NCBI GenBank assembly: GCA_038527375.1
Contig: JBCBFU010000003.1
Coordinates: 10,318 to 74,317 of the forward strand
Direction: 5' to 3'
DNA from: Pseudomonadota bacterium
GTDB taxonomy: Bacteria; Pseudomonadota; Alphaproteobacteria; Rhodobacterales; Rhodobacteraceae
DNA length: 64,000 nucleotides
Shown here: positions 13,468-60,697 of the stretch, one piece after another
How positions within the stretch are numbered: position 1 is the first letter of the stretch
Layout: each line of letters begins with the position of its first letter
Position numbers and translations under genes: made by a program
Notes under the pieces: generated by a model
Databases searched by the model: none
What the model saw: the letters and a program-made list of their open reading frames with translations, nothing else
What the model was told of the DNA's origin: nothing

Positions 13468-13633
13468 GTCCGTCACGACAGTTTCGGGGTTTTCCTCGGG
13501 ATTAAACACTTCGCGCCTCGCCAGATGGAGGGGCAACGCGCAGGCCACGTGATCCGTTCCGCAAAAGTCGGGTGGCCCCTCGCCGTCTTGCGGCCTATGC
13601 AGGTGGCCAACTCGCCTGACTGTGGAGACACCC

Positions 13634-14422
13634 ATGCCCTTTACGCTCGCCACCTGGAACATCAACTCGGTCCGCTTGCGCGCAGGGCTGGTGGAGCGGC
13701 TGATGCGGGAGGAAGCGCCCGATGTGCTGTGCCTGCAGGAGTGCAAAAGCCCCGTCGACAAAATCCCCGTCGAGGGGTTCGAGGCGCTGGGCTACACCCA
13801 CATGGTCGCGCGCGGGCAGAAGGGGTACAACGGCGTGGCGATCCTGTCCAAGCTGCCGCTGGAAGAGGTCGAAGCCCTTGATCTTGCTAGCCTAGGCCAC
13901 GCACGCCACATCGCGGCGCGCCTGCCCAACGGGGTTGTCATCCACAATCATTACGTCCCCGCGGGCGGCGATGTGCCGGACCGCGAAAAGAACGAGAAGT
14001 TTGGCCAGAAACTCGATTACCTGACGGAGTTGCGGGACATCTTTGCCGGGCAGAAGCCCGCGCGGTCGATCCTCGTGGGCGACCTCAATATCGCGCCGCG
14101 CGAAGATGATGTGTGGAGCCACAAGCAGCTGTTGAAAATCGTCAGCCACACCCCGATCGAGGTCGATCACCTGAACGATGTGATGGCGGCGGGCGACTGG
14201 GTGGATGTGACGCGACAGGATATCCCCGACGGGCTTTTGTACAGTTGGTGGAGCTACCGGGCCAAGGATTGGGATGCCGCCGACAAGGGCCGCAGGCTCG
14301 ATCACATTTGGGCCACGTCGGATATCGCGGGGCAGGCGTCGGGCAGCCGGATTTTGCGCGACGTTCGGGGGTGGGAGCAGCCGTCGGATCACGCGCCGGT
14401 CTTTGCGACATTCGACCTCTGA
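13634..14422 (+). CDS. xthA: Exodeoxyribonuclease III
   Basis: 262 aa. MPFTLATWNINSVR, LQE, GDLNIAP and SDHAPV motifs present. A GGAGA Shine-Dalgarno lies 5 nt upstream. Confidence 0.9.
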   Translation: MPFTLATWNINSVRLRAGLVERLMREEAPDVLCLQECKSPVDKIPVEGFEALGYTHMVARGQKGYNGVAILSKLPLEEVEALDLASLGHARHIAARLPNGVVIHNHYVPAGGDVPDREKNEKFGQKLDYLTELRDIFAGQKPARSILVGDLNIAPREDDVWSHKQLLKIVSHTPIEVDHLNDVMAAGDWVDVTRQDIPDGLLYSWWSYRAKDWDAADKGRRLDHIWATSDIAGQASGSRILRDVRGWEQPSDHAPVFATFDL

Positions 14423-14451: not shown

Positions 14452-14492
14452 CGGTACACCAAGCGTACACATTGCGTACACACGGCGTACAT
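14452..14492. repeat. Four octamers (CGGTACAC, GCGTACAC, GCGTACAC, GCGTACAT) spaced exactly 11 bp apart
   Basis: Copies start at 14452, 14463, 14474 and 14485. Related GCGCACAT words occur at 14502 and 14541. Confidence 0.85.
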
Positions 14493-14676
14493 ACGCAAGG
14501 CGCGCACATCGCGGGGTGATCTGGCTGCCTTTGGTGCGTCGGCGCACATGATCCGGGTCTCCGTTGGAACTGCGTCGACCCTTGGCAACACGCCCTCTGA
14601 CACGCATATAGCGGGCAACGCGACCGGCCCGTTTTAAAGCGGTCGCACAGAATGCCAGACGGATTGGACGTACAGC

Positions 14677-15585
14677 ATGTTGGAATTGAACGCAGGCCCG
14701 AACGCAGATGAGCTGATCAAGGACAGCTCGGAAGCGACCTTTATGGAAGATGTGGTCGAGACCTCGCAAACCGTGCCGGTCATCGTCGATTTCTGGGCGC
14801 CGTGGTGCGGCCCGTGCAAGACGTTGGGGCCCGCGCTGGAGGCGGCGGTGACCAAGGCCAAAGGCGCGGTCAAGATGGTCAAGATCGACGTCGATCAAAA
14901 CCAGGCCATCGCGGCGCAGTTGCGCATTCAGTCGATCCCCACGGTCTATGCCTTCTATCAGGGCCAACCTGTCGACGGCTTCCAAGGGGCGGTGCCGGGA
15001 TCCGAGATCGACGCCTTTGTCGAGCGTGTCGCGGCGCTGGCCGGTGGATCCGCCGATGGCGGTCTGGGCGAAGCTGTCGAGGCGGCCGAGGCGATGCTGG
15101 CGGAAGGCGCTGCCGAAGATGCGGCGCAGACGTTTGCGGCCATTCTGGGCGAAGATCCCAACCACGCCGAGGCCTATGGCGGTTTGGTCCGTGCGCATCT
15201 GGCCATGGATGATGTGGATCAGGCCGAGGCCATCCTGAACGGCGCACCGGCCGAGATCGCGGATGCGGCCCCGCTGGAGGCCGCGCGTGCGCAATTGGAA
15301 CTGGCCAAGCAGGCCGCCGATGTGGGGCCGGTGGCCGAGTTGCGCGCCACGGTCGAGGCCAATGCAGACGATCATCAGGCGCGGTTCGATCTGGCCGGTG
15401 CCCTGCAGGCGTCGGGCGATGCCGAAGGTGCGGTGGCCGAGTTGCTGGAACTGTTCCGTCGCGACCGCGAATGGAATGACGGCGCGGCCAAGACGCAGCT
15501 CTTTACGATCTTTGATGCGCTCAAGCCAAACGATCCGGTTGTGCTGAACGGGCGCCGCAAGCTGTCGTCGATGATTTTTGTCTGA
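14677..15585 (+). CDS. Thioredoxin-domain plus TPR co-chaperone (YbbN/CnoX-like)
   Basis: 302 aa. The N-terminus has FWAPWCGPCK; the C-terminal half is Ala-rich and TPR-like. Confidence 0.8.
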   Translation: MLELNAGPNADELIKDSSEATFMEDVVETSQTVPVIVDFWAPWCGPCKTLGPALEAAVTKAKGAVKMVKIDVDQNQAIAAQLRIQSIPTVYAFYQGQPVDGFQGAVPGSEIDAFVERVAALAGGSADGGLGEAVEAAEAMLAEGAAEDAAQTFAAILGEDPNHAEAYGGLVRAHLAMDDVDQAEAILNGAPAEIADAAPLEAARAQLELAKQAADVGPVAELRATVEANADDHQARFDLAGALQASGDAEGAVAELLELFRRDREWNDGAAKTQLFTIFDALKPNDPVVLNGRRKLSSMIFV

Positions 15586-46877: not shown

Positions 46878-46947
46878 GTCGGGGCTGCTCTGTTTGGGTC
46901 CTGAACGGACCCAAAGGCGCCCACCCTCCGACCCAGCGTGACAAGAA

Positions 46948-46977
46948 AGGCCGCCTCACATCCGTGGGCGGCCTTTT
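46948..46977. terminator. Bidirectional hairpin terminator between convergent genes
   Basis: AGGCCGCCTCAC-ATCC-GTGGGCGGCCT, flanked by A-rich sequence upstream and TTTT downstream. Confidence 0.6.
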
Positions 46978-46995
46978 GCGTGGATTGAGGGGACG

Positions 46996-47568
46996 TTAGC
47001 CCAGAACGACGCGCGCGCCGCGGGGCACGCGTTGGTAGAGGTCCGCCACATGCGCGTTAACCATCCGCACGCAGCCGTTGGAGTTGCGTGTGCGCATGGA
47101 CCACGGCACCGGCGTTCCGTGGATGCGTAGGAAGGTGTCGCGGCCCCCGTCAAAGAGATAGAGCGCGCGTGAGCCCAACGGGTTTTCCGGCCCGCCCTCC
47201 ATGCCGTCCTCGTGCTGTTTGTAGATTTCGGGTTCGCGTTCGATCATCGCGGCGGTGGGCGTCCAGCGCGGCCATTCCTTTTTCGCGCCGACGCGGAAGG
47301 TCCCGCTTTCATAGAGACCCGGACGACCGATACCGACGATATACTTGATTGCGCGGCCTTCAGGCAGGGTCCAGTAGAGCGCGAATTCGGATGGAACAAC
47401 CTGAATTTCGCCCGCTGCCCAGCCGCGATCGAGCTGCACCAAGGTGGGCATGTTTTCCTGCGGCACGTTGTAGTTGAACTGGGTCGTCTGGGCGATTGCC
47501 GGTGCAGCAAGCGCGGCAGCGCCGGTTGCGATGAGGGCGCGGCGGGTAAAAGATCGGGTGGGGGTCAT
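46996..47568 (-). CDS. L,D-transpeptidase (YkuD domain) with a Tat-type signal peptide
   Basis: 190 aa. RRALIATGAAALAAPAIAQ is the signal; RIHGT...SNGCVRM is the active site. Confidence 0.85.
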   Translation of the reverse strand: MTPTRSFTRRALIATGAAALAAPAIAQTTQFNYNVPQENMPTLVQLDRGWAAGEIQVVPSEFALYWTLPEGRAIKYIVGIGRPGLYESGTFRVGAKKEWPRWTPTAAMIEREPEIYKQHEDGMEGGPENPLGSRALYLFDGGRDTFLRIHGTPVPWSMRTRNSNGCVRMVNAHVADLYQRVPRGARVVLG

Positions 47569-47700
47569 GGCAGCCTCCGGAAACTGGTCTTCGATACGCT
47601 AACGGGTGAGCGGCGGCTAAGTTGCTCACGTTTAGGTCAACGGTGTCTGATTACCGCAGTTGATGCGGGGGGGCCACAGTGGTTGGGGAGGATGAAGTGG

Positions 47701-47820
47701 ATTTACCCAGTGGTACCCGGTGATACTCAGTCGTACCCAGTGATACCCGGTCGTACTCAGTGAAACTTGGACTTACCCGGTGATACCCGGCTGTACCTGG
47801 TGATACCCGAACTTACACGT
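47701..47820. repeat. Twelve tandem 10-bp units (consensus TGATACCCGG), or six 20-bp super-units
   Basis: Units: atttacccag, tggtacccgg, tgatactcag, tcgtacccag, tgatacccgg, tcgtactcag, tgaaacttgg, acttacccgg, tgatacccgg, ctgtacctgg, tgatacccga, acttacacgt. The period is exactly 10 bp. The last unit overlaps the stop codon of the ATPase gene. Confidence 0.9.
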
Positions 47821-49024
47821 CATCGAGGGTTTTCAACCACGCGGCAAAGGCGTTGGTGGGAAGACGATATAAGCCCGGCTTGTCGGGATGGGCTTCGAGC
47901 GCATCAGATGTCTTCATCTTCCTCAGCGCATTGGCGACATTGTCGGGCGAAACGGGTTCCGCGGCCTTGGTGATCTGTTGCCGCGTCAGCCAGTCGGTCC
48001 CATGGTCGGCCATGGCGCGCAGGACAGCCTTGTAGTTGTCTGACGTCGCGGCGGATTTGTAGACTCCATCAAAGAAGTCTGCGCCGATATCTCGGGTTGC
48101 CGCCGGAAATGCAGTCTCTACGGCCTCAGCATCGACGGGTCCTGTTCCGGCCTGATCGAAGGCTGCATAGGCGTATGTTTGCAAGAAGAACGGGTATCCT
48201 TCAGACAAATCTGAAAGCAGATCTTCGGCGTCGTCGGTCATGTCGCGGGGCTGGTTTGCCGTGGCGTTTGCAAGGCGCATTCCCGTCCTCAGGATCTCAC
48301 GCCGTTCGAGATCTGCGAGGGGCGTCAAAGTCATGCTTTTGAAAATTCGTAAGACAGACTGATGATTGTCATAGAGATGGGCACGCAAGATCGGTTGCCC
48401 CGCGACAAGCATCAGGAGCTTGGCGACTTTCTGACGTTGGAGCCGCTCTGTAAAGTCTTTGAGCCACGTTGCGAGGCCAGCATCTGGGGGTGGGGCGTCG
48501 GCCTCGTCAAAGGTTATGAAGACCCCTTGGAAGAAGCCCAACCGTTCCACCTCGGCCAGTTTGTCGACGAGGGTGCCGAGTGCCTGATTATGGGATACCG
48601 GCGTTTCAGGGCGATGATAGTGGACGCCCAAAATCTCCCAATTCAGCAGGAAGTCGACGATCGCCCTCAAACCGGGGCTCGCGACGTTGCGGGTGTCGAG
48701 GGCAAGCTTGAGGTGATCAGCCACGCGGCGGGTGATCTCGAACATGTCGCTCACCCCAGCCAGAGAGACTGAGACCACAAGGAAATCGAAGTCTGTCGTT
48801 TCGCCGGGCAGATCGTCCGCGGCCATCAGCTCGCAAAATTGGAGCAATGATGACTTGCCGATGCCGCGCTCGCCCATCAGCAAAATATGCTTCACCGGAT
48901 CGCCGTGGTAGGCAGCGCTGAGGCTTTGGGCCACGGCGTCAATCTCCGATGCCCGACCGCGAAAGATGTCAGGCGTTGCAGGTTGCGCTGGGCGAAACGG
49001 ATTTCTGGATCTGTTCAACCTCAT
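47813..49024 (-). CDS. P-loop ATPase (Orc1/Cdc6- or Arch_ATPase-like AAA+) with a C-terminal winged-helix domain
   Basis: 403 aa. NPFRPAQPATPDIFRGRASE leader; Walker A LMGERGIGKSSL; Walker B VFITFDEAD. The C-terminal YKAVLRAMADHG..WLTRQQI...ALRKM...LYRL is wHTH-like. Third codon positions are much richer in A/T than in neighbouring genes. Confidence 0.7.
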   Translation of the reverse strand: MRLNRSRNPFRPAQPATPDIFRGRASEIDAVAQSLSAAYHGDPVKHILLMGERGIGKSSLLQFCELMAADDLPGETTDFDFLVVSVSLAGVSDMFEITRRVADHLKLALDTRNVASPGLRAIVDFLLNWEILGVHYHRPETPVSHNQALGTLVDKLAEVERLGFFQGVFITFDEADAPPPDAGLATWLKDFTERLQRQKVAKLLMLVAGQPILRAHLYDNHQSVLRIFKSMTLTPLADLERREILRTGMRLANATANQPRDMTDDAEDLLSDLSEGYPFFLQTYAYAAFDQAGTGPVDAEAVETAFPAATRDIGADFFDGVYKSAATSDNYKAVLRAMADHGTDWLTRQQITKAAEPVSPDNVANALRKMKTSDALEAHPDKPGLYRLPTNAFAAWLKTLDDV

Positions 49025-49033
49025 GGTGCACCG

Positions 49034-49061
49034 AGGTTATCGGTTCGTCGAACGTGGTCAA
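49034..49061 (-). promoter_or_regulatory. Candidate sigma-70 promoter of the ATPase gene, implying a near-leaderless mRNA
   Basis: On the minus strand, TTGACC-16 nt-TAACCT ends 9 nt before the ATG. There is no Shine-Dalgarno in between. Confidence 0.35.
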
Positions 49062-49071
49062 AGGCATCGAA

Positions 49072-49103
49072 ACAAAAAAGCCCCGGGTGTGATACCCGGG
49101 GCT
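49072..49103 (-). terminator. Rho-independent terminator of pnp
   Basis: On the minus strand: AGCCCCGGGT-ATCAC-ACCCGGGGCT followed by TTTTTTG. Confidence 0.85.
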
Positions 49104-49128
49104 TTCGTGTTTCGAGGGGAGGTAAGGC

Positions 49129-59098: not shown

Positions 59099-60583
59099 TC
59101 AGGCGGACATGTCGTAGGCCTGCGATTGCCCGATCAGGGTGATGTCGTCGGCGGTCAGGGCGCCCGCGTTCTGGAGGGACAGAATCGTTTCGCCGCCGAG
59201 CGACACATGGGTCACACCGGGCAGATTCGGGTCCTCGGCGATTTCCACGGACGGGTCTTCCAGCGCTGCATCGTCATAGACCACGACCAACTTATCCTCG
59301 GCCATGTCGAAATCCTGCACGATCGCAGCCCCTTGCATCCAGTGGCCCACGACCAGCGTATCCTCGCCCTCGCCCAGTGTGATGTGGTCATAGCTGCCCG
59401 CGATAACGCCATCGTCCCCGTCCCCGGCATTCAGGAAATCGCCGGTATCAGTGTCGATCCCGTCTGCCGACAGGGTGGTGCCCACAAGGATATCATCGCC
59501 TGTGCCCGCAAACAGCGTGTCCTGCCCGGCCCCGCCGATCAGCACGTCATTACCGGCCCCGCCCTGCAGCCCGTCATTGCCGTCGCCGCCAAAGAGGGTG
59601 TCGTCGCCAGAGCCGCCGTTCAACAGGTCGCTGCCCGCGCCACCGGTCAGCTGGTCATTGCCCAGATGACCAAAGAGCGCGTCGTTCCCGATGCCCCCAT
59701 CGGCGCTGTCGTTTCCGTTTTCGCCGTGGAGTTCGTCATTGCCGCTATCGCCCAGCAGGGTGTCGTCACCGTCGCCGCCAAAGGCAAAATCGTCGCCCGC
59801 GCCCGCGTCGATCAGGTCATCGCCGCCGCCACCGCCCAGTTCATCAACGCCGCCGAGGCCCAGAAGGTTGTCGTCACCGTCGCCGCCCACCAGACGCTCG
59901 CCCGACGCGTCGCCGATGATCGTCGTTCCGGTGGCTGTGTCCGCCTCTGCGTCTGTGTCTTGTGGAACACCACCCGATTGCGCGCCTGCGTCCATGCCGG
60001 GTCCCGCGTCAGCGAGGGACACGCCCGTGGACAGATCAAAGCCCTGCCCGTCGGCACCCCCCGGAGCATCGCCCGGAGCAACAGATGGACCCGCGCCCAG
60101 ATCAAGGCCCACATCGGGACCCTCGCCGCCAGTGGCCAGAGTGTCGAGGTCGGCAAGCGCGTCGAGATCATCCAGAAGATCATCCGCGCTCGATCCCGTG
60201 ACTTCCTCCGTGTCATCGAGAAGCCCCGCGCCCGCGTCCATCCCCAGATCAGCAGCGCCGTCCAAGGTGCCGCTGGCCATGTCCTGTACGTCACCGGCCA
60301 CATCCGCAGCCAGATCGACAACGCCCGCATCGCCAATCAGGCTGCCGGTCGTCGGATCGTCGATGGCGGGGACACCCGCGTTGCCTTCGCCGTCCGTCCC
60401 ATCGTCGCTGTCGTCAAACAGGGCATCGAGCGACGCAAAGCCGGGCGCGGAGCTGGCGTCGCTGTCAAACGCGTCGTCCGCGTGTCCCGCGTCCTCATCC
60501 TCGCCGCCCTCGTCGGACCCCAGTGGGCCAACAAAGGCTGCGCCCATCATCATGACGCCCAGAAGGCTTGCCAACATCAACAT
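59099..60583 (-). CDS. Highly acidic calcium-binding RTX-repeat (hemolysin-type) protein
   Basis: About 494 aa from [19 protein letters not shown]. About 15 GGxGxD nonapeptide repeats ([24 protein letters not shown]), preceded by an Asp/Gly/Ala-rich region of about 230 aa. Confidence 0.8.
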
Positions 60584-60697
60584 ACGTGCACCTACGAAAC
60601 CCAAACGTTCCCGCCGGGCTATACCGCAGGGCACATGAACAATCGCTGAACATCGCAAGGTATGGTTAACGCAGGCGGCCCCGTTCGACGGCAGGGC

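Follow-up and report, generated by a model that had tools for sequence, protein, structure and literature searches.

How is an uninterrupted run of decamers at the 3′ end of a bacterial gene for an Orc1/Cdc6-like ATPase to be understood? The question is raised by a 64,000-nt stretch of a roseobacter-group metagenome-assembled genome (MAG; GenBank GCA_038527375.1, contig JBCBFU010000003.1, positions 10,318 to 74,317), referred to here, at its full length, as the window. Orc1/Cdc6-type proteins are regarded as the replication initiators of archaea and eukaryotes; bacteria use DnaA. Judged from comparison of sequences, the array is most probably the cognate binding site of the adjoining ATPase, a private platform on which the protein would assemble cooperatively, and gene and array are proposed to constitute a self-contained, horizontally portable module of two parts. 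The observations behind this are the array itself, its linkage to the gene across genomes and the covariation of its unit with one residue of the protein; the fold of the protein comes from a predicted structure.

The array (positions 47701-47820, no strand assigned) comprises twelve contiguous 10-bp units in head-to-tail order, without insertions or deletions, as initially annotated. Units 1–6 are ATTTACCCAG, TGGTACCCGG, TGATACTCAG, TCGTACCCAG, TGATACCCGG and TCGTACTCAG, and units 7–12 are TGAAACTTGG, ACTTACCCGG, TGATACCCGG, CTGTACCTGG, TGATACCCGA and ACTTACACGT. The column consensus is TGATACCCGG on the plus strand (CCGGGTATCA on the gene strand), with a core consisting of T4 (11/12 units), A5 (12/12) and C6 (12/12); units 7 and 12 are degenerate. 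Tandem Repeats Finder (TRF) reported the array at 47704-47809 both with period 10 (10.6 copies, 65% matches, score 70) and with period 20 (5.3 copies, 76% matches, score 107), and no other period-10 array of ≥4 copies was found in the 64 kb. Resemblance between alternate units, also described at the outset, is real but modest: mean unit identity is 6.9/10 for odd–odd and 6.3/10 for even–even pairs, against 6.0/10 for odd–even pairs, and the TRF score is stronger at period 20.

A 16-mer covering two units has five matches in the window, all within the array, where 0.28 would be expected; the double unit is thus confined to one place in 64 kb, and over that length the array is not a dispersed REP or satellite element. 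Neither is it a CRISPR array, the units being contiguous and without unique spacers between them, nor a hairpin: the fold of the corresponding RNA was not significant (z-score 0.59), and no Rfam covariance model overlapped 47701-47820 at E ≤1. The array is intergenic except for its last 8 bp, for the TGA stop codon of a minus-strand open reading frame (ORF) at 47813-49024 (plus-strand tca, 47813-47815) lies inside unit 12, again as first noted. The next gene beyond the array encodes a YkuD protein, and the array lies ~130 bp upstream of it.

The minus-strand gene at 47813-49024 encodes a 403-aa protein, and its initial description as an Orc1/Cdc6-like AAA+ ATPase with a C-terminal winged helix is borne out at the level of the fold. 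Pfam AAA_16 (PF13191) matched residues 21-192 with 35.7 bits (cut-off 32.6); the Orc1/Cdc6 model TIGR02928 reached 25.6 bits against a cut-off of 181.3, with only the P-loop region aligned, and NF001625 reached 17.5 bits against a cut-off of 501. An AlphaFold2 model built on 32 homologues (pLDDT 89.8, pTM 0.84) gave 2v1u, 1fnn, 2qby and 2fna as top Foldseek matches, with full-length alignment to Orc1/Cdc6 over ~400 columns at E ~1e-9. Two of these, 2v1u and 2qby, are archaeal Orc1/Cdc6 complexes with DNA and among the best whole-chain matches in the Protein Data Bank (PDB); eukaryotic ORC, CED-4/NLR (STAND modules), TnsC and RFC were lower-ranked structural neighbours. By sequence profile, the only PDB entry reached was 2fna, an uncharacterised Sulfolobus AAA+ protein (E 0.0015). 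The model has the three-part architecture of Orc1/Cdc6 (AAA+ base, lid and C-terminal winged helix), and no effector domain was seen in the 403 residues beyond these parts.

The motifs expected of an ATPase are intact, all of them encoded on the minus strand. The Walker A P-loop (G51-ERGIGK-S58; 48851-48874) is invariant in alignment A1 and in all 78 aligned proteins of the homologous loci, as are H221 and R226 in the latter, and Walker B (D173-E174-A-D176; 48497-48508), also invariant, lies at the end of a strand of the model (167-173). The winged-helix domain (residues 329-399; 47828-48040), recognised by the secondary structure of the model, the full-length Orc1/Cdc6 match and invariant columns, bears the wing motif G384-x-Y-R-L-P-T390, present here as G-L-Y-R-L-P-T. 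Within this domain lies the predicted recognition helix (residues 360-372, PDNVANALRKMKT; 47909-47947), in which the window protein carries V-A-N-A-L and N365-A366-L367 is invariant. A further run of invariant columns, W129-E-x-L-G-V-x-Y136 (48617-48640), occupies a low-confidence loop (pLDDT <50 at residues 132-138) between strand 2 and Walker B, after a two-helix insertion (94-128), and may be a contact with DNA or within an oligomer similar to the initiator-specific motif. The gene had been called an orphan, a description that had to be abandoned: there are at least 586 homologues, the family forms 351 clusters at 50% identity (E of 1e-30 or better), and at least 461 of 185,579 species genomes carry a relative. 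Almost all family members are stand-alone proteins of ~400-430 aa.

Linkage of gene and array was assessed at 81 loci, comprising the window and 80 further loci from many phyla (669 kb), with TRF and with a lag-10 autocorrelation scan followed by extraction of arrays of ≥45 bp. Of the TRF arrays with period 10 or 20, 34/35 lay within 200 bp of the ends of the ATPase gene, a zone making up 4.9% of the sequence, and no other period was enriched there; apart from the remaining 1/35, no further period-10 array was found elsewhere in the 669 kb. Arrays of ≥45 bp, with 4-25 units, were recovered at 44 loci, within ~170 bp of the gene. Broken down by identity to the window protein, an array was present at 30/33 loci at ≥35%, 7/21 at 32-34%, 5/19 at 29-31% and 1/8 at ≤28%, and one of the three array-less loci in the first group (L011) is N-masked exactly at the expected array position. 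Among the closest relatives with usable context, at least 25 GGGTA units follow directly after the stop codon in L267 (64% identity) and ~17 GGGTA(A/G) units in L002 (57%), and Marinibacterium anthonyi (L001, 56%) has six CATTAC/CATTGC units after the stop codon as well as a second cluster. Carriers that can be cultivated include M. anthonyi, Rhodopseudomonas palustris BisB18, Qipengyuania and Devosia alba.

The arrangement of the two parts is flexible. Alphaproteobacteria have the array downstream of the gene; in Bacteroidota, Bdellovibrionota, Marinimicrobia and Formivibrio it stops 6-75 bp short of the start codon; and, upstream or downstream, it may stand in either orientation relative to the gene. 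The 20-bp super-period seen in the window recurs in L002, L021, L047 and L053. Clustering of ORFs within ±4 kb at the 81 loci revealed no conserved neighbour gene except pnp in Rhodobacterales, which lies upstream of the ATPase gene at eight loci (seven by ORF clustering, including the window, plus L001). The gene past the array varies, encoding YkuD in the window, a short-chain dehydrogenase in L001 and a family 25 glycosyltransferase (GT25) in L002. The conserved unit is therefore gene plus array, and the window itself shows the combination of x-N-A-L, the G-x-Y-R-L-P-T wing and, within 200 bp, a 10-bp array with a T-A-(G/C) core.

The sequence of the unit varies together with the protein. 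Aligned in register on either strand, the units of the 44 loci yield the consensus c-A-T-T-A-g-c, in which T (0.86) and A (0.75) are the most conserved positions and the T-A-(G/C) core is kept across phyla; the T-A-C of the window falls on this core. Residue 364, directly before the invariant N-A-L (Ala in the window protein; codon 47933-47935, minus strand), varies with the two bases that precede the TA core on its 5′ side. Where residue 364 is Asn, 'AT' precedes the core in 17/19 loci (ATTA); where it is Asp, 'AT' is found in 0/9, with AG, CT, AC, TG or CC instead (hypergeometric p ~8e-6, uncorrected for phylogeny). On the protein tree, D364 turns up in four or more separate clades, and in one clade a D/N switch is accompanied by a change of unit from CC(C/T)TAGC to CCATTAGC. 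Fertoeibacter pairs D364 with CAGTAG. In the clade of the window, N364 occurs with CATTAC (L001), S364 with GGGTA(A/G) (L002) and A364 with GGGTA, the last in both the window and L267, whose recognition helices are identical.

That the decamers might be cooperative binding sites for the adjoining winged-helix protein had been put forward in the initial annotation, and the predicted fold, the recurrent pairing and the covariation all argue for it. In the mechanism envisaged, the winged helix would read each decamer, N365-A366-L367 and the G-x-Y-R-L-P-T wing contacting the T-A-(C/G) core and residue 364 reading the variable bases directly 5′ of it. A spacing of 10 bp would let the AAA+ domains of neighbouring protomers touch and hence polymerise along the array, cooperatively and in dependence on ATP, after the model of DnaA at closely spaced boxes and of Orc1 at origin recognition boxes. 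The units had been supposed to share one face of the helix, and this is so only approximately: by simple arithmetic, 10.0 bp set against 10.5 bp/turn gives a drift of ~17 degrees per unit and ~200 degrees over twelve. The spacing being shorter than the helical repeat, the protomers might trace a shallow spiral, or the DNA might be overtwisted or wrapped, and phased TA steps would favour bending. ATP hydrolysis would then reset the complex, for which Walker A and B are intact and the invariant R226 is a candidate arginine finger. The 20-bp super-period may mean that one protomer, or one dimer, occupies two units. Binding to the array, growth of a filament and remodelling of the DNA are what we infer from these features taken together.

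A close functional model for such behaviour is DnaA on clustered boxes (low-affinity arrays of oriC, datA and DARS). DnaA-ATP polymerises cooperatively, with approximately one protomer per helical turn, and the resemblance extends to an AAA+ protein, short and closely spaced sites and a separate DNA-binding domain; going by the fold match and by established classification, the window protein would belong to the same broad initiator grouping. However, DnaA binds through the helix-turn-helix of its domain IV to 9-mers at an 11-bp period and is essential and universal, whereas the module combines a winged helix with a spacing of exactly 10 bp and is accessory and rare.

Several points weigh against the array being the cognate site of the ATPase. 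A 45-kDa protomer every 34 Angstrom would be sterically tight. Statistics for the covariation ignore shared ancestry, and how the window unit is oriented against the family consensus is ambiguous (scores -0.93 and -0.85). It had also been held at the outset that occurrence of the ATPase without adjoining repeats would speak against the pairing: relatives at ≤34% identity (Acidobacteriota, Gammaproteobacteria and others) do mostly lack a detectable adjoining array, in contrast to those at ≥35%, and the wider ATPase family therefore does not require the array. The converse, an array widespread without the ATPase, was approached by scanning viral and metagenome contigs for four ATTAGC cores at a 10-bp period. 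Such arrays turned up in 19 viral contigs and at least 120 metagenome contigs, yet a family ATPase adjoined only 3/120 of the metagenome arrays and, by tblastn, 0/19 of the viral ones, and the family HMM detected none among ORFs near 14 of the latter. Array sequence alone is thus not predictive of the protein. Decamer arrays without the ATPase are, then, common; but two control hexamers of equal base composition gave 39 and 4 viral matches, and the ATTAGC arrays therefore represent a background of decamer tandem repeats. No neighbour common to these arrays was found. The reverse scan is uninformative about the forward association of gene and array, and it is that association, with the covariation, that constitutes the evidence.

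Two of the viral ATTAGC-core arrays (L096 10692-10727 and L101 2872-2907) lie beside ORFs that, by eye, resemble a primase-polymerase or helicase, and are possibly phage origin iterons. The unit of L096, GTCCATTAGC, is also the decamer of the array next to the Methylopila henanensis ATPase gene (L055), a match that by estimate chance could explain.

Other repeats and stray copies were noted at the family loci. In the window, a lone exact copy of the array-unit 11-mer CCGGGTATCAC (49089-49099, minus strand) lies in the terminator hairpin of pnp (49076-49106, GAAAGCCCCGGGTATCACACCCGGGGCTTTT), 65 bp upstream of the ATPase start. No other match lies outside the array in 64 kb, the corresponding terminators of L002 and L267 have none, and the copy may be an extra putative binding site or a coincidence. 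A lone unit opposite the array was rejected as a general feature, a position weight matrix scan of the 44 loci having found none upstream of genes with downstream arrays. Tandem paralogues with arrays of their own were rejected likewise, apparent second copies being frameshift-split genes (L050, L055) or, in L034, one distant paralogue; in L050 (3989-5257) and L055 (3983-5246) the split gene, a pseudogene or an assembly error, has kept its downstream decamer array.

Beside the array-less distant relatives, a search for other repeat types brought up no consistent feature, save for ACGGCAA upstream in three acidobacterial loci (L052, L061 and L083) that have no decamer array. Each has three dispersed copies at ~-340 to -56 from the gene start, spaced by 60-150 bp (~140 bp in L052 and L083), which could be a non-tandem version of the putative binding site. 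Short 7-bp tandem arrays, their unit different in each genome, lie ~30-250 bp from the ATPase gene, mostly at loci with an upstream 10-bp array (L014 3912-3942 and 5240-5274, L025 1736-1760, L026 5312-5374, L027 2134-2162, L034 212-301, and L039 5440-5469, the last without a 10-bp array); these are a possible second cis element, or merely heptamer repeats of a kind common in these phyla. In M. anthonyi, besides the downstream CATTAC array, a 12-bp repeat (GGGCACACGAGG, 4.2 copies; L001 5907-5956) is found 45 bp upstream of the ATPase start.

What the module does for the cell is a further question, and the possible outputs are compatible with the binding model, not exclusive of it. An ORC-type AAA+ protein acting on private, co-evolving decamers may amount to an unrecognised class of bacterial chromosomal element whose purpose is outside the textbook set of replication origin, plasmid partition, CRISPR and classical operator, a serious possibility if one somewhat short of likely; such a purpose could be a nucleoprotein 'barcode' or switch in genetic conflict, or local control of topology or of replication-fork passage. 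Among conventional outputs, a switch or operator and a conflict or defence sensor share the first rank, both at low probability, followed by an origin-like role and, lower again, a centromere or anchor; the rest of the probability is reserved for outputs not yet imagined.

The protein could be a transcription factor or roadblock and the array its operator, serving autoregulation or insulation in the manner of STAND-type regulators or of Orc1-2 of the Sulfolobales. This would suit the loci of Bacteroidota, Bdellovibrionota and Formivibrio, in which the array falls in the promoter/5′ region, and in the window it would give meaning both to the position of the array upstream of YkuD and to the unit copy in the terminator upstream of the ATPase gene. 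Use of an Orc1 paralogue as a regulator has precedent: Orc1-2 is reported to be a non-initiator paralogue that regulates the response to DNA damage (PMC9738581), with the Orc1 architecture (AAA+, initiator-specific motif, winged helix) put to use beyond replication initiation. It is, however, a global regulator of DNA-damage-responsive expression, and not the user of one private array beside its own gene. Alphaproteobacterial arrays, moreover, lie downstream of the gene, in either orientation, the gene past the array differs between genomes, and it is not evident what output a regulator would have if its own flank were the sole target conserved. On balance an operator is unlikely.

Just as unlikely is a conflict or defence system, in which the Orc-like ATPase would be held or armed at its private array and would sense invading DNA or a phage factor. 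What speaks for this idea comes largely from the genomic setting. A 'Pseudomonadota bacterium' MAG has a pnp gene 100% identical to that of the window, and for the pnp genes of Shimia and Tateyamaria the identity is 90-92%. In the window, the interval between pnp and a 1-Cys peroxiredoxin gene contains ATPase, array and YkuD; in L002 it contains ATPase, array and GT25; and in Tateyamaria omphalii and another MAG (pnp 90-92% identical) it contains glycosyltransferases and no ATPase (intervals compared: L268 7131-10035, L269 7137-8077 and window 46878-49128). Since the interval of close relatives holds other genes and no ATPase, gene and array are accessory cargo in a variable interval of roseobacters. 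With L005 and L006 the window shares 90% identity in pnp but only 57% and 41% in the ATPase, and third-position GC content (GC3) is 0.67 in the ATPase gene against 0.76-0.87 in its neighbours. Rapid divergence, low GC3, a patchy distribution over species genomes and structural neighbours among STAND, CED-4 and NLR modules would all be in keeping with a role in conflict. Against it, a search of PADLOC-DB 2.0.0 matched 0 families at E of 0.01 or better, the protein has no effector domain, no conserved defence genes lie nearby, and we know of no defence system that uses a tandem decamer array.

The fold itself brings to mind a replication origin, in which an Orc1/Cdc6-type initiator would act on iterons at a second origin of the chromosome or in an integrated replicon that has gone unrecognised, or would melt DNA. 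Archaeal orc1/cdc6 genes adjoin their cognate origin repeats, and initiator and repeat specificity co-diversify here as they do in iteron plasmids. The archaeal proteins with their origin recognition boxes (Aeropyrum pernix ORC1-DNA, 2v1u; Sulfolobus, 2qby) are the best whole-chain structural match and likewise have intact ATPase motifs. The module nevertheless differs from them in being bacterial, in scoring far under the TIGR02928 cut-off and in lacking an MCM gene; its sites are strict 10-bp direct repeats in tandem runs of 3-25 units, whereas archaeal origin boxes are longer, few and inverted, not a tandem decamer run, and are disposed around an AT-rich unwinding region. No such AT-rich element is evident beside the window array on reading the sequence, GC skew keeps a positive sign throughout the window and does not invert at the array (47.7 kb), and no helicase, MCM, primase, integrase or other conserved partner was found within ±4 kb at the 81 loci. 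Iteron plasmids (RepA, RepE, pi) resemble the module in a winged helix that reads direct repeats beside its own gene with private, co-evolving specificity, which for the module is a prediction. Their Rep proteins, by contrast, have no AAA+ module, their iterons (17-22 bp) are about twice as long, and they are autonomous replicons with DnaA boxes and an AT-rich region; the window shares the repeats beside a putative binder gene and shows no autonomous replicon.

Mobile elements are, moreover, nearly devoid of relatives. Plasmids yielded only relatives of 24-26% identity (16 records), phages a single one (an archaeal-virus ORC1) and 2.9 million viral contigs only five full-length ones, and in PHROG the only match was with a functionally uncharacterised family, at its P-loop region; the ATPase loci sit on chromosomes or long contigs. 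A plasmid or phage origin of the family was rejected on these grounds, and an origin-like function is improbable.

Still less probable is a role in partition or anchoring, in which the array would be a centromere-like site on the lines of parC/ParR or tubC/TubR and the ATPase its binder. Centromeres of the parC and tubC types are typified by phased tandem repeats of 10-12 bp beside a binder gene and by specificity that diverges rapidly, traits that the module shares; in those systems binding is cooperative and builds a filament or superhelix, behaviour that for the module is proposed only. There, however, the binders are small, belong to plasmids or phages and work with an actin- or tubulin-like motor encoded next to them. 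The module is a lone AAA+ protein, neither a ribbon-helix-helix protein nor a small winged-helix adaptor, at a single chromosomal locus, and no ParM, ParA or TubZ-type motor or other conserved partner was found within ±4 kb at the 81 loci. With neither replicon context, partner motor nor GC-skew inversion, the labels 'iteron' and 'centromere' that the initial annotation had suggested for the array are not supported.

The two remaining alternatives would do without binding of the ATPase to DNA. The array could be a tandem repeat of a generic kind (VNTR, REP or satellite), prone to slippage and beside the gene by chance: decamer arrays are common, those with ATTAGC almost never adjoin the ATPase, control hexamers match as well, and some family arrays (L016, L027, L063 and L065) are near-perfect, which implies recent slippage or expansion. 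Chance is, however, hard to reconcile with 34/35 arrays falling within 200 bp of the gene, with arrays at 30/33 loci of close relatives, with a period that is always 10 or 20, with a core kept across phyla and a unit that covaries with the recognition helix, or with the uniqueness of the unit in the 64-kb window, and this explanation scarcely survives. Weakest of all, and next to negligible, is action of the array in RNA, as a repeat-rich 3′ UTR or small RNA acting as sponge for an RNA-binding factor: a crude scan found an intrinsic terminator between stop codon and downstream array in 0/30 loci, making co-transcription probable, but the array has no significant fold or Rfam family, its covarying partner is the recognition helix of a winged helix, a domain that typically reads double-stranded DNA, and its two orientations, whose transcripts would be unrelated in sequence, suit a target in duplex DNA and argue against a role at the RNA level.

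The initial annotation knew of no described system that pairs such an ATPase with such an array, and searches of the full-text literature, subscription-only papers aside, brought up no account of bacterial Orc1-like proteins paired with decamer arrays. Sulfolobus SSO1545 (2fna; PF01637, 'archaeal ATPase'), one of the four top structural matches, also joins an AAA+ module to a C-terminal winged helix; it is itself of unknown function and, to our knowledge, no repeat array has been reported for it. The gene–array module thus appears to be new to the literature, while an AAA+ DNA-binding ATPase with adjoining cognate repeats is apparently of a familiar type, and there is a substantial chance that the biology of the module is new. 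It places in bacteria an Orc1-fold family many of whose members, especially those ≥35% identical to the window protein, have a decamer array of their own, and from comparison alone it supplies a testable recognition rule, in which one helix residue tracks two bases 5′ of the T-A core. Should binding be confirmed, the module would offer a compact natural system for initiator-like polymerisation of an AAA+ protein on phased sites, a source of orthogonal protein–DNA pairs for synthetic biology, and a new accessory function to find in roseobacters, rhizobia, sphingomonads, Bacteroidota and Bdellovibrionota.

Two further features of the window involve repeats. Between an exonuclease III-like gene (13622-14422, plus strand) and a thioredoxin-domain gene (14677-15585, plus strand), four GTACA(C/T) motifs with an 11-bp period (14454-14497) look like another small phased binding array, whose core resembles the GTAC(C/T)C of the main array and whose period differs. 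A 519-aa ORF (59099-60658, minus strand) is rich in GGxGxD nonapeptide repeats of the calcium-binding RTX type, which account for the 24- and 27-bp tandem repeats reported by TRF at 59526-59863.

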